A stretch of 64,000 bases of DNA, taken from Candidatus Dadabacteria bacterium. Its GTDB lineage: Bacteria > Desulfobacterota_D > UBA1144 > Nemesobacterales > CSP1-2. Both the position numbers and the translations under genes were made by a program. Shown here piece by piece: positions 52,636-58,836 of the stretch (positions within the stretch are counted from its first letter, which is position 1; every line of letters starts with the position of its first letter). The stretch spans positions 160,001 through 224,000 of the forward strand of contig CAWDVW010000005.1 in NCBI GenBank assembly GCA_963805855.1, read 5' to 3'. The notes under the pieces were generated by a model that was not told the DNA's origin, did not search any database, and was given only the letters and a program-made list of their open reading frames with translations.

Positions 52636-54378
52636 CTCTTACTTACCTTCTTCTTAATTTCATCCGACATGTCAATGACCTCAGGATACCACTCTTTTAT
52701 TGTCGCATCTATCCCCATTCTTCCATCATATATTACAGCCGATCCGCTAAGCTCGATATGCTCAAATATTACATCAAGATACGGATCAAACCTAGTAAAT
52801 ATACCCCAAATAACCTCCGTGTCATCATGTATCTCAATATCAGGACTCACAATTGAAATGATTCTTATATCCTCATAACCCGGCGTTTCGAAGATCTTCT
52901 TTATCACATCTTTCGGTTCCTTATGCACCTTCAATACAAGAAAGCCACCGGGGAGCAGTCGGAAATCAATTATCTCCTTATGCTTTTCTCTCGGATCGGA
53001 AACCCGCTTGGGCAGTTTCCTCTTTTTTTCTCCCGGCGCGTCTTACAGCGTTTATACCCATCTTACTCCCGACATTCATTTTTCCGCTTGTAAAGTCTAA
53101 AGTATCGAGCGGCGCCCATGGAATAAGCACAAAATCCTCCCGAGGATCAAAATTCTCCCCAATCTCAGTAAGAACCGCTTCCATGTCCCTGGGATTAACA
53201 TCGCTTGAAACCATTACCATACATTTTGTCAGAAGAAGCTGACCTATACCCCAAAGAGCAAGCATAGCCTTTATACCGTTTTTTGGATATCTCTCATCTA
53301 CCGAAACCGCCAGGAGATTATGAAACCCCGCGGCAGGGTAAGCCCACATGTCCTTAACCTCTGGCTGCACAATCCTTATCAAAGGGGAAAACATCTCGGC
53401 AGCGGCTATTCCAAGATACACGTCCTCCATAGTGGGTTTTCCAACAACTGTAGATGGATAAATGGGATTGTTCCTGAATGTAATTTCCCTAACATTAAAT
53501 ATTGGAAAATCGGCTTCCATAGAATAATGACCAAAATGGTCGCCAAATGGTCCCTCCTCCCTCAAAACTTCCTGAGGGACAACCCCTTCAATTATAAATT
53601 CCGCGTTACCCGGAACTCTGAGGGAAATAGATTTGCCCCGTATCATTGGAATCGGCTTACCCCTCAAATAACTTGCAAAGGCCAATTCATCCATGCCCTC
53701 AGGGAGAGGAGCAATTGCACTAAAGATCATCTTTGGATCACCGCCCAGTATCACAGCCGCATCGAGGTCTCTCCCAAGTTTTGAGGCTTCGTGATAATGT
53801 GCAGCACCACCTTTGTGCGGGTGCCAGTGCATTGCTGTTGTTTTATCATCAAATATTTGCATCCTGTATATTCCGAGATTTCTACGGTTGGATACCGGGT
53901 CCTGGGTCAGAATTAATCCAAGTGTGATGAACCTTCCACCATCCTTGGGCCAGCATTTCATGATAGGAAGTTTGCCAAGATCCGGCTGGATTCGATTCTC
54001 CTGGACGATTCCGTTTTTCACATTCTTTGTCCTCATTGAGAGAAGGCCAAAGAGCTTTGGAAATATCGAGAAGAACGATTTTATTGATGGAGGGTTTAAC
54101 TTTTCAAAAATATTAACAAGCTCCTCACCCACTTCCTTCGGCTTTCTTCCCAGTGCCAGCTCAACTCTCTCCTCAGTTCCAAATAGATTGATTGCCAGAG
54201 GAAAGGAGGCACCCTTTACGTTCTCAAATACAAGTGCCGTCCCCTTTTCCTTAGCGACTCTGGAGTATATCTCTGTGATCTCGAGAATCGGATCAACCTC
54301 AGCTTTGACCCTGGTCAAATCACCAATGGCCTCGAGATAGGTAATATATTCCTGAAGATCTTCAAAATTCTTCTTCAT
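52611..54378 (-). CDS. ubiD: UbiD-family menaquinone biosynthesis decarboxylase (MqnL-like), frameshift in a homopolymer near 53025
   Basis: WPKDGGRFIT, RNLGIYRMQ, EGPFGDHFGHY, VGKP..ED, LDTLD, GSKMGINA; the C-terminal part continues in 52934-52611. Confidence 0.9.
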
Positions 54379-54530
54379 TTATGATTTTAGGACCTTTCGT
54401 TATACGTTTGAACCTTGATTATACCATTTTCCGGCGACTGTTCACCACAGACGTACCGAGCAAGAATTACCACTGAATTTAAACTTAGCTTTCCGATTGT
54501 CTTTACCGCACCGTTAGTTTGAAAAATGAG

Positions 54531-54661
54531 AAAACGAGACGCAAACCTGTTAACTCGAAGCTTTTTGTCATTGGCCAGAAGGCTACGCCTCCCTGGGCCT
54601 GAAGGTTAAAGGTTCTAAGCCCCGCCAAAGTAGCCGGTAGTCGCAGGATGTTGGACTGCGT
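54531..54661 (-). ncRNA. Putative structured ncRNA, copy A
   Basis: Homologous to 55958-56088. Stems ACGCAG/TTGCGT, GGCTAC/GTAGCC and GGGCTT/AGGCCC, loop CCTTTAACC, T-tract. G-U pairs favour the minus strand. Confidence 0.6.
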
Positions 54662-54709
54662 ATAATATAAAACAAACTTTCAGGGGGGTAGCAAAAAAAA
54701 CAACGAAGA

Positions 54710-54739
54710 TGTCCTAAAAAATTTCAGATCCATCGTCGT
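54710..54739 (+). promoter_or_regulatory. ECF-type promoter, copy A
   Basis: TGTCCT-N17-TCGTCGT; repeated at 56134 and 57115. Confidence 0.7.
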
Positions 54740-54876
54740 TATTATGAATATGAAACAAGACCTAGCGAAAGAGTGTATAAAATGATGCGAATCCTGTAGG
54801 CTTGCACCAGACAATAGACAAGTTGGCTGCACATCTGAAATAATTTTGGTCAACTTGATGAAAAGGAGAAATTCAT

Positions 54877-54986
54877 ATGCAAAAAATCACACCATGCCTG
54901 TGGTTCGATAGCAACGACGTGGAGTTCGAGAGTCATGCCTCGTTACTATCGGCCTGGCAAGCTTGACAACGGCCGCTAACATCTAG
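54877..54986 (+). pseudogene. Internally deleted VOC (PhnB/3-dmu-9 3-mt family) gene
   Basis: AAGGAG RBS then MQKITPCLWFDSN; homology is lost after ~13 codons. Confidence 0.7.
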
Positions 54987-55048
54987 AATGTGAAAGCATA
55001 AATATAGTTTGATAATAAATCCAAACGAAACAATGGGAGAATGGAAAA

Positions 55049-55480
55049 ATGGCAACGATTAATCCTTATTTAAACTTTAATGGCAACACCGAAGAGGCAT
55101 TTAATTTTTATAAATCAGTATTTGGCGGAGAATTTATGGTTTTAATGCGTTGGAAAGACGCACCTGAGGCGGACAAGATACCTGCATCAGATCACGAGAA
55201 AATTATGCATGTCTCTTTACCCATCGGAAAAGGAAACGTCCTCATGGCAACCGACGCTTTGGAATCATGCGGACATTCCCTAACCCAGGGAAACAATTTC
55301 TATATTTCGATTAATGCTGAAAGCGAAGAAGAAGCAAATCGTTTATTCAATGGACTTTCAGCAGGTGGGCAGGTAACAATGGCGCTCCATAAGGCTTTTT
55401 GGGGTGCATATTTTGGAATGTTTACCGACAAGTTTGGAATTCAATGGATGGTAAGCCACGACTATAATCAACAGAAATAA
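55049..55480 (+). CDS. VOC family protein (PhnB-like)
   Basis: INPYLNFNGNTEEAFNFYKSVFGG, KIMHVSL, FWGAYFGM.TDKFGIQWM. Confidence 0.93.
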   Translation: MATINPYLNFNGNTEEAFNFYKSVFGGEFMVLMRWKDAPEADKIPASDHEKIMHVSLPIGKGNVLMATDALESCGHSLTQGNNFYISINAESEEEANRLFNGLSAGGQVTMALHKAFWGAYFGMFTDKFGIQWMVSHDYNQQK

Positions 55481-55495
55481 CATGGGAGAATCAAA

Positions 55496-55945
55496 ATGAT
55501 AAGAACAAGTTTGAAGCGCTTCTTTCAGCCCGTTTCTCTGCCGACCTTTGCGTCGGCCGCGCTTCTCGTGCTTCGCCTGATCGTAGGAGCCGCGTTTGTA
55601 TTTCATGGCTGGGGAAAAATCCAGACTCCGTTTGGTTGGAATCCTCCTGAGTCTCCTGTTTTCATTCCCGTTATATTCCAGTTATTGGCGGCAATCTCGG
55701 AGTTCGGTGGCGGAATTGCCTGGATACTCGGGCTCTTGACTCCTATCGCGTCACTGGGAATCGGCTGTACCATGGCGGTGGCTGTTTATTTACACTCGAT
55801 GGTAATGAAGGATCCATTCGTTAATTTGACCGGCGGGTCCTCATACGAGCCGGCCTTGGTCTATCTCGGGATTGCCCTGGTTTTTCTCGCGCTGGGACCC
55901 GGAAAATTCTCGTTAGATGAGGGGATATTTGGAGAGCACAAATGA
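55496..55945 (+). CDS. DoxX family membrane protein
   Basis: LLVLRLIVG..F..HGW.K, SEFGGG...LGLLT, GPGKFSLD. Confidence 0.92.
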   Translation: MIRTSLKRFFQPVSLPTFASAALLVLRLIVGAAFVFHGWGKIQTPFGWNPPESPVFIPVIFQLLAAISEFGGGIAWILGLLTPIASLGIGCTMAVAVYLHSMVMKDPFVNLTGGSSYEPALVYLGIALVFLALGPGKFSLDEGIFGEHK

Positions 55946-55957
55946 GAAGAGTAATGG

Positions 55958-56088
55958 AAAAAAGAGGAGCGCGACCCCTTCTCATCGAAGCAGCTTGCCG
56001 ACAGCCGGAAGCCTAATCCTTTTAGCGCGTCATGGTTAAGGCTTAAAGCGCGCAAGGCACCTGGTAGCCGCAAAAGATTCAATCGCGT
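55958..56088 (-). ncRNA. Putative structured ncRNA, copy B
   Basis: Stems GCGATT/GGTCGC, GCGGCT/AGCTGC and CCTT-GCGCG/CGCGC-AAGG, loop containing CCTTAACC, T6 tail. Upstream promoter TTGCCC-16-TAGATT. Confidence 0.6.
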
Positions 56089-56133
56089 ATAATCTAGGAG
56101 TAATGTTCGGGAGGGCAAGAAAATTAATGAAAG

Positions 56134-56162
56134 TGTCCTTACATGTCTCTCCCATTCGTCGT
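56134..56162 (+). promoter_or_regulatory. ECF-type promoter, copy B
   Basis: TGTCCT-N16-TCGTCGT upstream of DUF899. Confidence 0.7.
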
Positions 56163-56203
56163 ATTCATGAATACGGACAAAACTGTACCAAGGAGAATTC
56201 ATC

Positions 56204-56980
56204 ATGACTAAAAACAAGATAGAGCAACCGAAAGTCGTGTTGCGGGACGAATGGCTCGCTGCACGTAAAGAATTTCTCCGGAAGGAGAAGGAGTTCACTC
56301 GGTTGCGCGACCAGTTGAGCGCTGAGCGGCGTCAGCTGCCCTGGGTCAAGGTGGACAAAAATTACGTCTTCAACGGATCCGGCGGAAAAGAGACGCTCTC
56401 AGACCTCTTCGAGGGACGTAGGCAATTAATCGTTTACCACTTCATGTTTGACCCCGATTGGGAGGAGGGCTGCAAATCGTGCTCATTGCTCGCGGACCAT
56501 TACAACCCGGCAATCGTTCATCTGAATCACAGGGACGTCTCGATGGTCACAATTTCCCGGGCTCCGCTGGAGAAGCTTCTTGCGTTTCGGAAGCGGATGG
56601 GATGGACGTTTAAGTGGGTGTCGTCATTCGATAGTGATTTTAATCGCGACTTTAATGTAACGTTCACGGCGGAAGAGTTGGAAAGCAATACGGCCAATTA
56701 CAACTACGATTTCAAGCCATTTCCGGTGACCGAAGCACCGGGAATCAGTGTATTCTTCAAAGACGATGACGGAAACATCTTCCACACCTACTCTTCCTAT
56801 GCTCGTGGACTTGACATATTCATCAGCGCCTACAATCTTCTTGATATCGTTCCCAAGGGGCGGGACGAGGACGGTTTGCGTTACACCATGGAGTGGATTC
56901 GCCATCACGACCGTTATGACGACGTCACATTCGTTGACCCATATGTAGAGTTGATACCGCGCGGTTCCGGTGAGTCATAA
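56204..56980 (+). CDS. DUF899 (thioredoxin-like) protein
   Basis: EWLAARKE.L.KEKE.TR.RD.L.AERR.LPWVKV, QLIVYHFMF, GCKSCS, HTYSSYARG, LD..PKGRDE, W.RHHDRY. Confidence 0.94.
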   Translation: MTKNKIEQPKVVLRDEWLAARKEFLRKEKEFTRLRDQLSAERRQLPWVKVDKNYVFNGSGGKETLSDLFEGRRQLIVYHFMFDPDWEEGCKSCSLLADHYNPAIVHLNHRDVSMVTISRAPLEKLLAFRKRMGWTFKWVSSFDSDFNRDFNVTFTAEELESNTANYNYDFKPFPVTEAPGISVFFKDDDGNIFHTYSSYARGLDIFISAYNLLDIVPKGRDEDGLRYTMEWIRHHDRYDDVTFVDPYVELIPRGSGES

Positions 56981-57114
56981 AGTCAGGTGGGTTCACCATG
57001 AGAATCGATCTTTTAAGCCCGAGCGCACGCGAGAAATCTGGTTGTACCAATTATTCTGAGTCCGTATAATATAAAAGGAATGTACAGTAGCGGCAAAGAA
57101 AAAATCAACCAAGG

Positions 57115-57143
57115 TGTCCTCAACACTTTCTCTCGCTCGTCGT
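57115..57143 (+). promoter_or_regulatory. ECF-type promoter, copy C
   Basis: TGTCCT-N16-TCGTCGT upstream of the sigma-factor remnant. Confidence 0.7.
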
Positions 57144-57184
57144 ATTAGTGAAACTAAACAGAACCATATTGGTAGGAATATTAT

Positions 57185-57388
57185 GTTCGGAATCGGGAGC
57201 AGTTGAATTCTTACTATTTGCTTTACGCGGCGCTAGGCAAGTTCGAATCGCTTCTCAGCAATCGACAGGCCGCTATCAATTATTTTCGCAAGTCGCTTGA
57301 GCTGGCAACCATCAAATCGGAAATGAAGTTCTTGTCCAAAAGACTACGTGCCCTCGAAGACCCGGGAATAGCGATTAGCGCGTCTTGA
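57185..57388 (+). pseudogene. C-terminal TPR remnant of an ECF42-like (DUF6596) sigma factor
   Basis: LNSYYLLYAALG......RQAAINYFRKSLELAT..SE.KFL.KRL matches the C-terminus of that family; the sigma-2 and sigma-4 domains are missing. Confidence 0.7.
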
Positions 57389-57440
57389 CATAAACCAAAG
57401 TTATTAAGAAAGCACAAAGTCAAACAATGACCCCATTAAG

Positions 57441-57992
57441 CTAATCCAGTTCCTGGTGCATCCAACCGTTCGGAACCTCGACGCCTATGACGTTTAGGAT
57501 CTTATTCACATAACCCTCAACAAGGTCATTTACCGAATTTGCCTTAATATAATGTGGCGGGCTGATTGGCATTATAACGGCACCCTCCCGCGAAAGCTTG
57601 AGTGCATTCTCAAGGGCGATTGAGCTAAGAGGGGTTTCCCTGATAGCAAGTACAATCCTTCTTTTCTCTTTGAGCGCGACCTGTGCAACCCTCGTTATGA
57701 GGGTATCTGCTATCCCGTTGGCGATCTTAGCCAATGTAGAAACGGAGCAGGGAACGATGACAAGAGAGTCGAAATGGTTGCTCCCGGAAGAGAATGGAGC
57801 AGCTAGGTCCCAGTCATCAAAGGTTTTTTTCGCCCAGGGCGCAAGCTCTTCTATCTTAACACCCAATTCTTCATGCAGTACTCTCTTTCCCCACTTACTC
57901 GCAATCAGAAACTTTTCATCGGGGCATCTCCTGAGAAAATCTACGCCATATATTACCCCTGAAGCCCCTGTAATGCCTACAATGGTTCGCAT
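57441..57992 (-). CDS. ubiX: UbiX flavin prenyltransferase
   Basis: VGITGASG..YG, APFSSGS, PCSVSTLAKIA.G, ALKE.R, RETP. Confidence 0.95.
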   Translation of the reverse strand: MRTIVGITGASGVIYGVDFLRRCPDEKFLIASKWGKRVLHEELGVKIEELAPWAKKTFDDWDLAAPFSSGSNHFDSLVIVPCSVSTLAKIANGIADTLITRVAQVALKEKRRIVLAIRETPLSSIALENALKLSREGAVIMPISPPHYIKANSVNDLVEGYVNKILNVIGVEVPNGWMHQELD

Positions 57993-57993
57993 T

Positions 57994-58836
57994 TCAAGGT
58001 AAGTATATCCCAGAGATTACAAAAATAAAAACAAAAAACCCTACCAAGATGTTGATTTTAAAAAAAGCCAGGTCCACATTTGACGACTTCTTGTATTCCA
58101 AGAATAGAAGAAGGCCTGATACAAACAAAAACGGCAGCGCATACAGGGTATTAAACTTATATAAATAAAGAATTACGAGCACAATAAACGCGAAAAAATG
58201 CAGCAAAGCCGAAATCGATAGAGCCCTTTTCGTCCCGAAAACCGAAACAAGAGAGAAGACACCGCTTTCTCTATCAGATTCCTCGTCAAGGGTTGCATAT
58301 ATGATATCAAAACCGGAAACCCAACATAAGGTAAAAAGAGATAGAAGTATAGCTGGTAACAAGCCACCCAGTGAACAAGTAACCGCTACCCAACCTCCTA
58401 GAGGAGCAAGTGCCAGTCCAAGGCCAACCCCAAAATGACAGAGGTAAGTAAATCTCTTCATGTATGGGTATGAGACGAAGACGATTAGCGGAATAGGTGA
58501 GAGATATAGAACGAGATCGCAGATCAAAGATGCGGAAATAATGTATACCAGGATTCCCGCACAGGTTATCGCTAAGGCGCCTCTAAGCGAAATCACGCCC
58601 GAGGGTAGTTCCCTGCCTGCAGTTCGAGGGTTTCTTCTATCAATTTCTCGGTCAATGATTCTGTTCAGTCCGAGTGCCGCTGTCCTCGCTCCAATACCTG
58701 CAAAAAGAATTAGTATCAACAATTTTATATTGGGAACACCGTCGGCAGCTAAAAAGGCGCCTGATAAAATCAAAGGGAGTGAAAAAAGGGTATGTTCAAC
58801 CTTTATAAAGCTCCCATAGTTTCTGAGGTTCTTCAT
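57994..58836 (-). CDS. ubiA: UbiA-family polyprenyltransferase (MqnP-like)
   Basis: IK.EHTLFSLP, ARTAA...NRIIDR.ID..NPRT..RELP.G, WVSGFDIIYA.LD..SD. Confidence 0.93.
   Translation of the reverse strand: MKNLRNYGSFIKVEHTLFSLPLILSGAFLAADGVPNIKLLILILFAGIGARTAALGLNRIIDREIDRRNPRTAGRELPSGVISLRGALAITCAGILVYIISASLICDLVLYLSPIPLIVFVSYPYMKRFTYLCHFGVGLGLALAPLGGWVAVTCSLGGLLPAILLSLFTLCWVSGFDIIYATLDEESDRESGVFSLVSVFGTKRALSISALLHFFAFIVLVILYLYKFNTLYALPFLFVSGLLLFLEYKKSSNVDLAFFKINILVGFFVFIFVISGIYLP

Follow-up and report, generated by a model that had tools for sequence, protein, structure and literature searches.

Triplicated intergenic regions in a Candidatus Dadabacteria genome as probable tandem-promoter cassettes of a decaying ECF42-type island

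Three intergenic regions of the 64-kb window analysed here (the whole stretch of DNA, from a 3.1-Mb genome) share one layout, and we consider that they are probably paralogous tandem-promoter cassettes (P1, P2) of an ECF42 regulon, lying in a decaying island, with a copied VOC gene relic as the left part of two of them. Each cassette, read on the plus strand, would consist of P1, a AATGTYCRGGGG box, an A-rich UP-like tract, P2 and a short Shine–Dalgarno leader. P1 would be of the sigma-70-like type, its TATAAT being perfect and its −35-like element (GGTAGTYC or TTGNNC, at 17 nt) conserved but weak, and P2 a promoter of the ECF type (TGTCC-N17-CGTCGT). In copies A and B, the ∼120 nt preceding P1 appear to be the decayed 3′ end of a VOC gene (...EAxCHxPEA-stop) and its old downstream spacer, carried along in the duplication. 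The features are located as follows, with the type of evidence in brackets where it was recorded:

54530–54586, plus strand: left part of copy A, putative decayed VOC-family 3′-end relic (frame translation, tblastn)
54587–54635, no strand: copy A, former intergenic spacer from the relic to P1, poorly conserved (alignments)
54636–54666, plus strand: candidate P1 of copy A, GGTAGTCG, with −35-like TAGTCG at 54638–54643, a 17-nt spacer and TATAAT at 54661–54666
54677–54709, plus strand: box of copy A, CTTTCAGGGGGG, then an A-rich UP-like tract upstream of P2 (alignments)
54710–54739, plus strand: candidate P2 of copy A, ECF42-type, TGTCCT-N18-CGTCGT (pattern)
54877–54966, plus strand: 29-codon remnant of a truncated PhnB-like (PF06983) gene, behind copy A
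55049–55480, plus strand: intact VOC/PhnB-like gene (Pfam)
55496–55945, plus strand: intact DoxX gene (Pfam)
55954–56016, plus strand: left part of copy B, putative VOC 3′-end relic, reading MEKRGARPLLIEAACRQPEA and then a stop (translation, tblastn)
56063–56093, plus strand: candidate P1 of copy B, GGTAGCCG, with a 17-nt spacer and TATAAT at 56088–56093
56102–56133, plus strand: box of copy B, AATGTTCGGGAGGG, with an A-rich tract after it (alignments)
56134–56162, plus strand: candidate P2 of copy B, TGTCCT-N17-CGTCGT, upstream of the DUF899 gene and 94% identical to the ortholog in the relative G006
56204–56980, plus strand: DUF899 gene (Pfam)
57040–57070, plus strand: candidate P1 of copy C, GGTTGTAC, with −35-like TTGTAC at 57042–57047, a 17-nt spacer and TATAAT at 57065–57070
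57115–57143, plus strand: candidate P2 of copy C, TGTCCT-N17-CGTCGT
57183–57388, plus strand: deletion scar, the ATG of YCII (57183) joined out of frame to a sigma remnant

The shared layout had been noticed in a preliminary description of this DNA, and it was borne out: CGTATAAT at 54659, 56086 and 57063 begins the common arrangement, TGTCCT starts 51, 48 and 52 nt after it (54710, 56134 and 57115), and CGTCGT follows after N17/18. Scanning the genome with the pattern GTATAAT-N35-60-TGTC-N16-21-CGTC returned four matches, three of which were copies A, B and C; the fourth, on another contig, was unrelated. A stricter composite pattern had 13 sites, spread over 8 of the 101 genomes scanned within the order, as compared with two matches there for a reversed control pattern; at the level of the phylum, 8 out of 120 genomes had it. 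In relatives, the cassette was found mostly upstream of a YCII gene, with an ECF42-type sigma gene next, and in the genus of this genome it also seems to have been copied before other regulon genes. An unbiased survey of 14 loci, chosen by their YCII ortholog (tblastn, 65–100% identical), recovered GTATAAT together with the ECF motif at nine; at the remaining five, all from one genus, YCII lay directly behind the upstream gene. Searching metagenomes with the P1–P2 pattern gave seven loci, including one chance match (L111, apparently coding DNA), and with the left-block pattern none. BLAST of copy B against its own genome did not recover copy A, so the searches relied on patterns and a covariance model. 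Copy C, previously taken to be internally deleted, is instead the ortholog of the YCII-type cassette of the relatives G006 and G007, which never has the left part; copy C has no relic.

Among 20 unique cassettes, the −10 element of P1 was TATAAT in 19, and a T.G at the fixed 17-nt spacing was present in 18. The twentieth cassette (copy D) pairs a TATCAT −10 with a better −35, TTGCCC. The plus-strand TATAAT element pointed out earlier is thus conserved. All three copies in the window have a −35 that starts with TGTC and a CGTC −10, elements that cluster in the ECF42 loci of relatives and that, at a distance of about 16–18 nt, we take to be the ECF42 promoter motif. The proposal that TGTCC-N17-CGTCGT serves as a regulon promoter motif also held up, with 2–4 occurrences within 4–9 kb in the related clusters that were fetched. 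The distance from P1 to P2 was 46–55 nt across cassettes. Promoter activity of P1 and P2, and the sigma factor assigned to each of them, are inferences. Where the cassette precedes the YCII–sigma operon of relatives, its architecture suggests that P1 would provide basal expression independent of the ECF sigma factor, and P2 ECF-dependent, self-amplifying expression. We also considered a leader switch in which GGGGG would pair with CCCTCC as an anti-SD, and dropped it with an RNAalifold energy of 0.0 kcal/mol (P1 to start codon, plus strand, 15 sequences).

To the left of CGTATAAT, copies A and B align with 57% identity (65/115 aligned positions), in agreement with the earlier observation. The best-conserved block, when translated on the plus strand, gives the C-terminus of a VOC/glyoxalase protein and its stop, ...(I/L/F)EAxCHQPEA-stop. 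In five of the six left-part copies, (I/L/F)EAxC(H/R/L)(Q/W)PE(A/G) was found in one plus-strand frame, and in four of the six a stop directly follows, so that the C-terminal similarity is in frame with the stop. A search with this nucleotide pattern also brought up intact VOC genes (a family call judged from their sequence) ending in ...PDGHNIEAVCH(E/A)PEA-stop. With one intact protein (L115) as the tblastn query, the block was matched in five of the six copies at 50–71% identity over 9–16 residues per copy, a short basis for homology that counts against our reading; copies D and C gave no match. The best match was DG-stop-NIEAACLQPEA (71% over 14 residues), copy B aligned as IEAACRQPEA/IEAVCHEPEA (70% over 10 residues) and copy A as LEAFCHWPE/IEAVCHEPE (67% over 9 residues). 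No left part contains an intact VOC ORF, and the homologous codons number at most about 20 in any copy. Internal stops are present in copies A and G006B, copy A (...ENETQTC-stop-LEAFCHWPEGY) has also lost its terminal stop, and the relic of copy E is fused to an apparent N-terminal fragment of a short-chain dehydrogenase.

As in gene-end relics of segmental duplications, the VOC C-terminus and stop are still readable before the promoter, and some copies have internal stops or have lost the stop. Unlike such relics, the same truncated piece recurs with the same left boundary before four distinct genes, in no fewer than four genomes or contigs, and would therefore have spread as part of the promoter cassette. 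In a comparison of G000 with G006, P2 was 94% identical between orthologs, the stretch from P1 to the UP-like tract 83% and the leader 82%; the left core, with 72% (79/110), barely exceeds the 61% (56/92) seen at four-fold degenerate positions in the neighbouring DUF899 gene, our neutral yardstick. Judged from sequence, what had been called an ncRNA beside A and B is most likely what remains of the end of a dead VOC gene, copied with the promoters. A triplicated 'RNA' that seems to covary would then be better explained by duplicated promoter DNA with a gene relic, a combination that is a trap for sequence-only reading.

The preliminary description had instead proposed a family of rod-shaped, structured small RNAs, possibly acting as a 6S-like decoy. 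It had rightly placed the element outside the known RNA families: Rfam gave no match at gathering thresholds in the whole 64-kb window and none at E ≤ 10 over 54300–57400. Folding was no more stable than in shuffles, the minus strand giving z-scores of −0.37, +0.64 and +0.92 and the plus strand +0.46, +1.44 and +0.57. The RNAalifold consensus reached −6 kcal/mol as compared with −35 to −38 for single sequences, hence a structure conservation index of 0.17 (four copies) or 0.155 (six copies). The stems said to differ in sequence and still pair did so in 60.7% of cells versus 61.8% in shuffles (413 of 500 shuffles were at least as high); their covariation score in the four-copy alignment was 0.159 versus 0.163 in shuffles, and sliding the partners by −1 scored as well as the proposed stems, all in structure and covariation tests on only 4–6 sequences and hence of low power. 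G–U wobbles are not confined to the minus strand either, as the left-end hairpin of copy B (GAGGAG/CTTCTC, read by eye) has a wobble on the plus strand and an A–C mismatch on the minus strand. The structured-RNA proposal thus found no Rfam, thermodynamic or covariation signal. Compared with 6S RNA and other structured sRNAs in Rfam, the left element is alike in its size (∼125–145 nt) and the possible pairing of its ends, but differs in having no Rfam match, stability excess or covariation, with an index of 0.16–0.17.

Outside one genus, the left element was found only on two metagenome contigs. Of 101 genomes searched with a covariance model, two had significant matches, four in all and each adjoining the promoter cassette; four further matches (E 0.006–0.9) were taken as chance, the strongest of which (in G020, the only one inspected) was without promoter motifs. 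A dispersed repeat or MITE was rejected, since significant matches were few and confined to the cassette rather than spread over unrelated loci. The heptamers CTTTAAC and GTTAACA misfit the RYYYAAC/GTTRRRY cores of integron attC sites (by eye only). A small peptide was also discarded, its minus-strand frame being open in A and B and stopped in G006B, and the ATG ORFs of the plus strand using different frames in A and B.

Several observations do not fall into place with a housekeeping P1 and a dead left part. The −35 of P1 matches TTGACA at only 2–4 of six positions, a simple consensus promoter scan listed no P1, and a plain sigma-70 promoter leaves unexplained both the invariant CG directly before TATAAT (20/20 cassettes, copy A included) and the conserved GG before the −35. 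It is conceivable, if unlikely, that P1 is a second alternative sigma promoter (CGTA −10, GGTAGT −35) or a regulator site controlling P2. Some ECF promoters have a CGTA-type −10 with a GGTAGT −35, the CG in CGTATAAT and the conserved GGT.G lie outside the sigma-70 consensus, and no RNA structure accompanies the conservation of the AATGTYCRGGGG box between P1 and P2. However, GGTAG-N18-CGTATA showed no genome-wide regulon, with 2 strict and 9 loose matches versus 4 and 10 for scrambled controls, the TATAAT is perfect, and copy D offsets its weaker −10 by the better −35, as a sigma-70 promoter would. The left part, for its own share, retains a ∼7.2-nt periodicity in A, B and G006B (above the 95th–99th percentile of shuffles), which a coding relic does not explain. 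Together with GA(A/C)G motifs near −122, −101, −80 and −58 relative to GTATAAT and a left boundary identical in all six copies, this would suit cis-regulatory GA(A/C)G direct repeats, ∼21–22 bp apart, kept by selection and bound by some regulator. We regard such a role as rather unlikely: the near-neutral identity of the left part between orthologs speaks against it, copy D has no periodicity, Tandem Repeats Finder returned nothing on the left parts, and the YCII-type cassettes of G006, G007 and a second family work without them.

A divergent small RNA is unlikely as well. It would be a transcript of ∼125 nt that starts from a minus-strand promoter overlapping P1, is read from the left part and acts in trans or on RNA polymerase. 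All seven genus-type cassettes (A, B, C, G006B, D, E and F) have a TTG-type −35 at 16–19 nt from a TATATT-like −10 on the minus strand (partly read by eye), but this varying spacer weakens the promoters previously proposed there, only that of copy C passed the simple consensus scan (5 sites versus 4.2 ± 1.9 in shuffles), and no TTG-type −35 was seen in second-family cassettes or the YCII-type cassettes of G006/G007. A scan found a terminator-like hairpin with T6 in copy B (55979–55965, minus strand), and a short hairpin with a T-run was read by eye at the far end of D and E; yet identity in this 3′ end region was 30% between orthologs. The minus-strand RNAalifold energy was lower than in column shuffles (z −4.0, with 1/200 as low, and z −2.7, with 4/200), and in A, B and D the 5′ ACGC... 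end is able to pair with the 3′ ...GCGT end, one pair being compensatory and 71.9% of cells in helix 1 being paired. Against this stand the low structure conservation index, fold z-scores about 0, covariation equal to shuffles and to the −1 slide control, and a closing stem broken in copy F (read by eye), while the plus-strand coding relic accounts for the conserved core. As a ligand or decoy of the ECF holoenzyme, the RNA would also have outlived its target, the cognate sigma gene being lost from the genome. We likewise hold it improbable that the cassette is a bidirectional switch, or that a second alternative sigma factor recognises P1 (with a CGTA-type −10), which would imply a two-sigma cascade. 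In a switch, the P1 −10 would overlap the minus-strand −10 face to face and a ∼125-nt RNA would run through the VOC tail to the hairpin and T-run; polymerase could occupy one promoter at a time, sRNA and basal ECF-operon transcript would alternate, and the conserved CUUCUGGCUGAUGACA stretch of the RNA could act in trans.

Tandem cassettes, our preferred reading, have precedents in the housekeeping and autoregulated promoters that precede ECF sigma operons such as Bacillus subtilis sigM and Streptomyces coelicolor sigR. There, too, the ECF-dependent promoter of the sigma factor's own operon has a sigma-70-type promoter some tens of nt before it, and by analogy basal and inducible expression would be combined. 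The arrangement described here differs in being one conserved cassette with a fixed 46–55-nt distance and a conserved box between the promoters, in having been copied before several regulon genes and in outliving the sigma gene; its promoters are predicted from sequence. ECF42 is a widespread group with poorly understood signals. The conserved P1–box–P2 cassette before YCII–sigma operons, with its invariant CGTATAAT and conserved G-rich box, may offer testable elements for basal expression or extra regulation. Liu et al. reportedly described, in 2018, the ECF42 promoter motif and the link of the group to DGPF/YCII proteins.

The excerpt of PMC8999054 that deals with ECF42 gives its members a TPR-rich C-terminal extension of ∼200 residues, and the group is also covered in part of a classification paper (PMC7826278). 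The relatives' loci agree with this setting, as the earlier assignment to an ECF42-type cluster had anticipated. In both G006 and G007, the cassette is followed by a YCII gene (PF03795) and, directly behind that gene, by a sigma factor with Sigma70_r2, Sigma70_r4_2 and DUF6596, that is, sigma-2/sigma-4 regions and a long DUF6596/TPR-type extension, on which domain architecture, rather than a published classifier, the group assignment was based. VOC, PhnB-like, DoxX and DUF899 genes surround the cassette, whose promoters start with TGTC and have CGTC at −10. The linkage of P2 to a full sigma gene and a YCII/DGPF gene, present in G006/G007, is absent from the window, where both genes are deleted. 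Behind copy C, the former YCII start (ATG at 57183, frame MFGIGSS-stop) is followed by the last 58 codons of the sigma gene (57185–57388), 77.6% identical to residues 374–431 of the G006 protein; tblastn found only these residues of the G006 sigma factor at the locus and no YCII anywhere in the genome. The genome also encodes, at another locus, a sigma paralog with 40% identity, whose upstream region lacks such a promoter. The island thus appears to be decaying, through deletion of the YCII gene and ∼85% of the sigma gene behind copy C and truncation of a PhnB-like gene behind copy A. The locus would show how a sigma regulon decays, with the sigma gene deleted and target genes intact behind cassettes that have a possible sigma-independent promoter. 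The PhnB-like remnant behind copy A is still identical at 14 of 16 residues to the N-terminus of a 168-aa protein (PF06983) of G007.

Three intergenic stretches of the window share one layout, in agreement with the preliminary description: CGTATAAT is found at 54659, 56086 and 57063 (copies A, B and C), followed 51, 48 and 52 nt on by TGTCCT and then, after a further 17 or 18 nt, by CGTCGT. The repeat is real and non-random. The composite pattern has four sites in the 3.1-Mb genome, namely these three copies and one unrelated match on another contig. Below, P1 denotes the upstream sigma-70-like element with its TATAAT and P2 the ECF-type element, both putative plus-strand promoters, and the left part denotes the ∼120 nt upstream of P1. 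The copies lie among small plus-strand genes that fill 54380–57440, between ubiD and ubiX/ubiA.

Genes of the island and its borders
52978–54378, minus strand, ubiD
54877–54966, plus strand, PhnB-like (PF06983) remnant of 29 codons, behind copy A
55049–55480, plus strand, VOC/PhnB-like gene
55496–55945, plus strand, DoxX gene
56204–56980, plus strand, DUF899 gene
plus strand, short ORF overlapping the sigma factor remnant behind copy C
57441–58836, minus strand, ubiX/ubiA

To follow the cassette beyond this genome, we ran the pattern GTATAAT-N35-60-TGTCC-N15-19-TCGTC against the order (101 genomes) and subsequently against the phylum (120). This yielded 13 sites in eight genomes (two matches for the reversed control pattern). 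The sites fall into two families, the first with this genus and another one and the second with a single genus. Since the pattern itself forces GTATAAT, YCII orthologs were also collected regardless of their promoters. Nine of the 14 loci with such an ortholog (65–100% identical, tblastn) had both GTATAAT and the ECF motif in front of YCII; in the five remaining loci, all from one genus, YCII directly followed the preceding gene. The TATAAT element accompanies only some TGTCC...CGTCGT promoters: the one before YCII in the relatives G006 and G007, the corresponding one in the second family and several in this genus. Among 20 unique cassettes, TATAAT was perfect in 19, the exception being a further G006 copy (D) with TATCAT and a better −35, TTGCCC. 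A T.G-type hexamer was present at exactly 17 nt in 18 of the 20, and the distance to TGTCC ranged from 48 to 56 nt. The plus-strand promoter elements noted earlier are supported, and we call P1 a putative sigma-70-like promoter, with caveats: its −35 agrees with TTGACA at only 2–4 of six positions, its invariant CG and GG flanks are unaccounted for by the sigma-70 consensus, and it is absent from the list of a simple consensus promoter scan. P1 is separated from P2 by a conserved AATGTYCRGGGG box and an A-rich tract. The leader from P1 to the ATG had no conserved RNA structure (RNAalifold 0.0, 15 sequences), and conservation therefore acts at the DNA level.

Behind YCII, the relatives encode a sigma factor with Sigma70_r2, Sigma70_r4_2 and DUF6596 domains. 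Judged by its domains, it has the architecture of ECF42 factors, which PMC8999054 describes as an ECF core extended at the C-terminus by a long TPR-type region. In related clusters, two to four TGTCC...CGTCGT promoters are spread over 4–9 kb, along with DUF899, DoxX, PhnB-like, VOC, DUF1579 and SnoaL genes. Because of the sigma/YCII linkage and the clustering of the motif in these loci, we regard TGTCC-N17-CGTCGT, that is P2, as the putative regulon promoter, and the ECF42 context proposed from the window alone is supported. In one genome bin with 7% contamination (G076), three near-identical whole three-promoter ECF42 clusters were present on contigs C2, C13 and C14 (L060, L086, L090), which may reflect strain variation or genuine duplication.

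The cassette has a conserved architecture, in which P1 would provide expression independent of the ECF sigma factor, and P2 would make expression of the YCII-sigma operon and the targets ECF42-dependent and self-amplifying. Other ECF operons are known to combine sigma-independent with self-amplifying ECF-dependent expression. P1 accompanies several target promoters in this genus, and speculatively, this may be why the window's genome could tolerate losing the sigma gene. There, of the sigma factor encoded behind YCII, only residues 374–431 are left, directly behind copy C (57185–57358; 77.6% identity, tblastn with the G006 and G007 proteins), and tblastn with the proteins of the same relatives detected YCII nowhere in the genome. 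From the old YCII start codon at 57183, the sequence now reads MFGIGSS-stop, with the sigma tail in a different frame; gene lengths lead us to estimate a deletion of ∼1.5 kb. Copy C itself, which had been taken to be internally deleted, is not, because it is orthologous to the YCII-type cassette found in G006 and G007, a type without a left part. The PhnB-like remnant, with 14 of its first 16 residues identical to a G007 protein and then divergence and a stop, is a second sign of decay of the island. A sigma paralog of 40% identity, ∼640 kb away (contig C5, 857501–858799; L099 2502–3800), adjoins genes that we read as resembling EgtB/EgtD. It matched DUF6596 and, weakly, TPR, with no Sigma70_r2 or Sigma70_r4 match at E ≤ 0.001 and no TGTC...CGTC site upstream. 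G007 has a second, isolated piece of the sigma C-terminus (L065 13074–13235) ∼750 nt behind its intact sigma gene; over 54 residues it is 67% identical to the remnant in the window, which suggests that these clusters had been rearranged before.

Relatives differ in what lies in the gap between ubiX and ubiD, and of five checked, only G006 has the island adjoining ubiX as here. G007 has ubiA-ubiX, 530 nt and then ubiD, its ECF42 cluster being located elsewhere. Downstream of ubiX, the gap of G007 (L102) and G012 (L104) holds a small two-gene unit, a 72-aa protein and a second short ORF, which by eye resembles a toxin–antitoxin pair; in G001 and G005 it holds other genes.

The left part had been proposed to encode a rod-shaped, minus-strand structured RNA. 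The alignment of copies A and B to the left of CGTATAAT stands, over about 115–130 nt with 57% identity (65/115), but its reading as a structured RNA is not supported. Rfam gave no match at gathering thresholds over the whole window, nor at E ≤ 10 over 54300–57400. Single-sequence folds of either strand were no more stable than dinucleotide shuffles (z −0.37 to +1.44). With a covariance model from A, B and the ortholog of B in G006 (G006B), we found copy D, before a DUF1579-like gene of G006; none of the other 99 genomes, G005 of the same genus among them, gave a convincing match. Copies E and F, each before a YCII gene, came from a metagenome scan with the P1–P2 pattern. The minus-strand consensus folded at ∼−6 kcal/mol, versus −35 to −38 for single sequences, with a structure conservation index of 0.17 for four copies and 0.155 for six (plus strand, 0.08–0.10) and column-shuffle z values of −4.0 and −2.7, respectively. 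Instead of a rod, this consensus retains a small 5′ hairpin, one 5–6-bp stem with a few inner pairs and, with six copies only, an end hairpin. In the four-copy alignment, the proposed structure paired 60.7% of cells versus 61.8% in shuffles, and its covariation score was 0.159 versus 0.163, with a −1 slide control equally good. Copies A, B and D do form the end-to-end stem, which includes one compensatory pair; in G006B this stem is shifted, and in F interrupted. Identity between orthologs was 72% in the left core, versus 61% at four-fold degenerate sites of the neighbouring gene, and 30% at the putative 3′ end with its T-run. A divergent small RNA from the left part is quite improbable.

More probably, the left part is a gene relic. 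We searched its best-conserved block, GAAGC-N4-TGTCAT-N2-GCCAGAAGCCTAA, as a pattern in one genome per species. Among 21 matches, one was G006's own copy and three read as VOC-type gene ends, two confirmed as ORFs (ending ...GPDGHNIEAVCHEPEA-stop and ...DPDGHNIEAVCHAPEA-stop) and the third (L118) read from sequence; nine were unrelated heptamer arrays, and the remainder resemble chance. On the plus strand, the block reads (I/L/F)EAxC(H/R/L)(Q/W)PE(A/G) in five of the six left-part copies, with a stop directly behind it in four, and all six share a left boundary near (K/E)K.G(T/A)(Q/K/R). An intact VOC protein gave its best tblastn match on the block in five of the six; D gave no match, nor did copy C. 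In G006B, DG*NIEAACLQPEA matched DGHNIEAVCHEPEA (71% over 14 residues). The VOC frame is intact in none of the left-part copies; A and G006B have internal stops, and E is, in our reading, fused to an N-terminal fragment of a short-chain dehydrogenase. Because the block reads as a VOC C-terminus, often with its stop, and matches an intact VOC protein, we conclude that the left part probably represents the decayed tail of a VOC gene with its old downstream spacer. Tail and spacer would have been duplicated together with the promoters; the left part now precedes four different genes or gene sets (the PhnB remnant with VOC and DoxX, DUF899, DUF1579 and YCII). Such a relic would account for the sequence conservation of the left half. 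A role as cis-regulatory DNA is kept alive by two features that do not follow from such a relic, a periodicity of ∼7.2 nt in A, B and G006B and a set of GA(A/C)G motifs spaced by about 21 nt.

Directly behind the doxX stop, copy B contains an open 20-codon frame with an ATG (55954–56016; MEKRGARPLLIEAACRQPEA), which could be translated and is probably a chance survival of the VOC relic. The heptamer arrays (GAAGCCT/CCTGAAG), whose matches to the block pattern stem only from the periodicity within that pattern, are located immediately outside genes in genomes from several unrelated phyla (GTDB contigs L112, L114, L117, L122, L123, L124, L130, L131 and L132). In L123, L130 and L132, arrays in opposite orientations face each other and would form a long imperfect hairpin.
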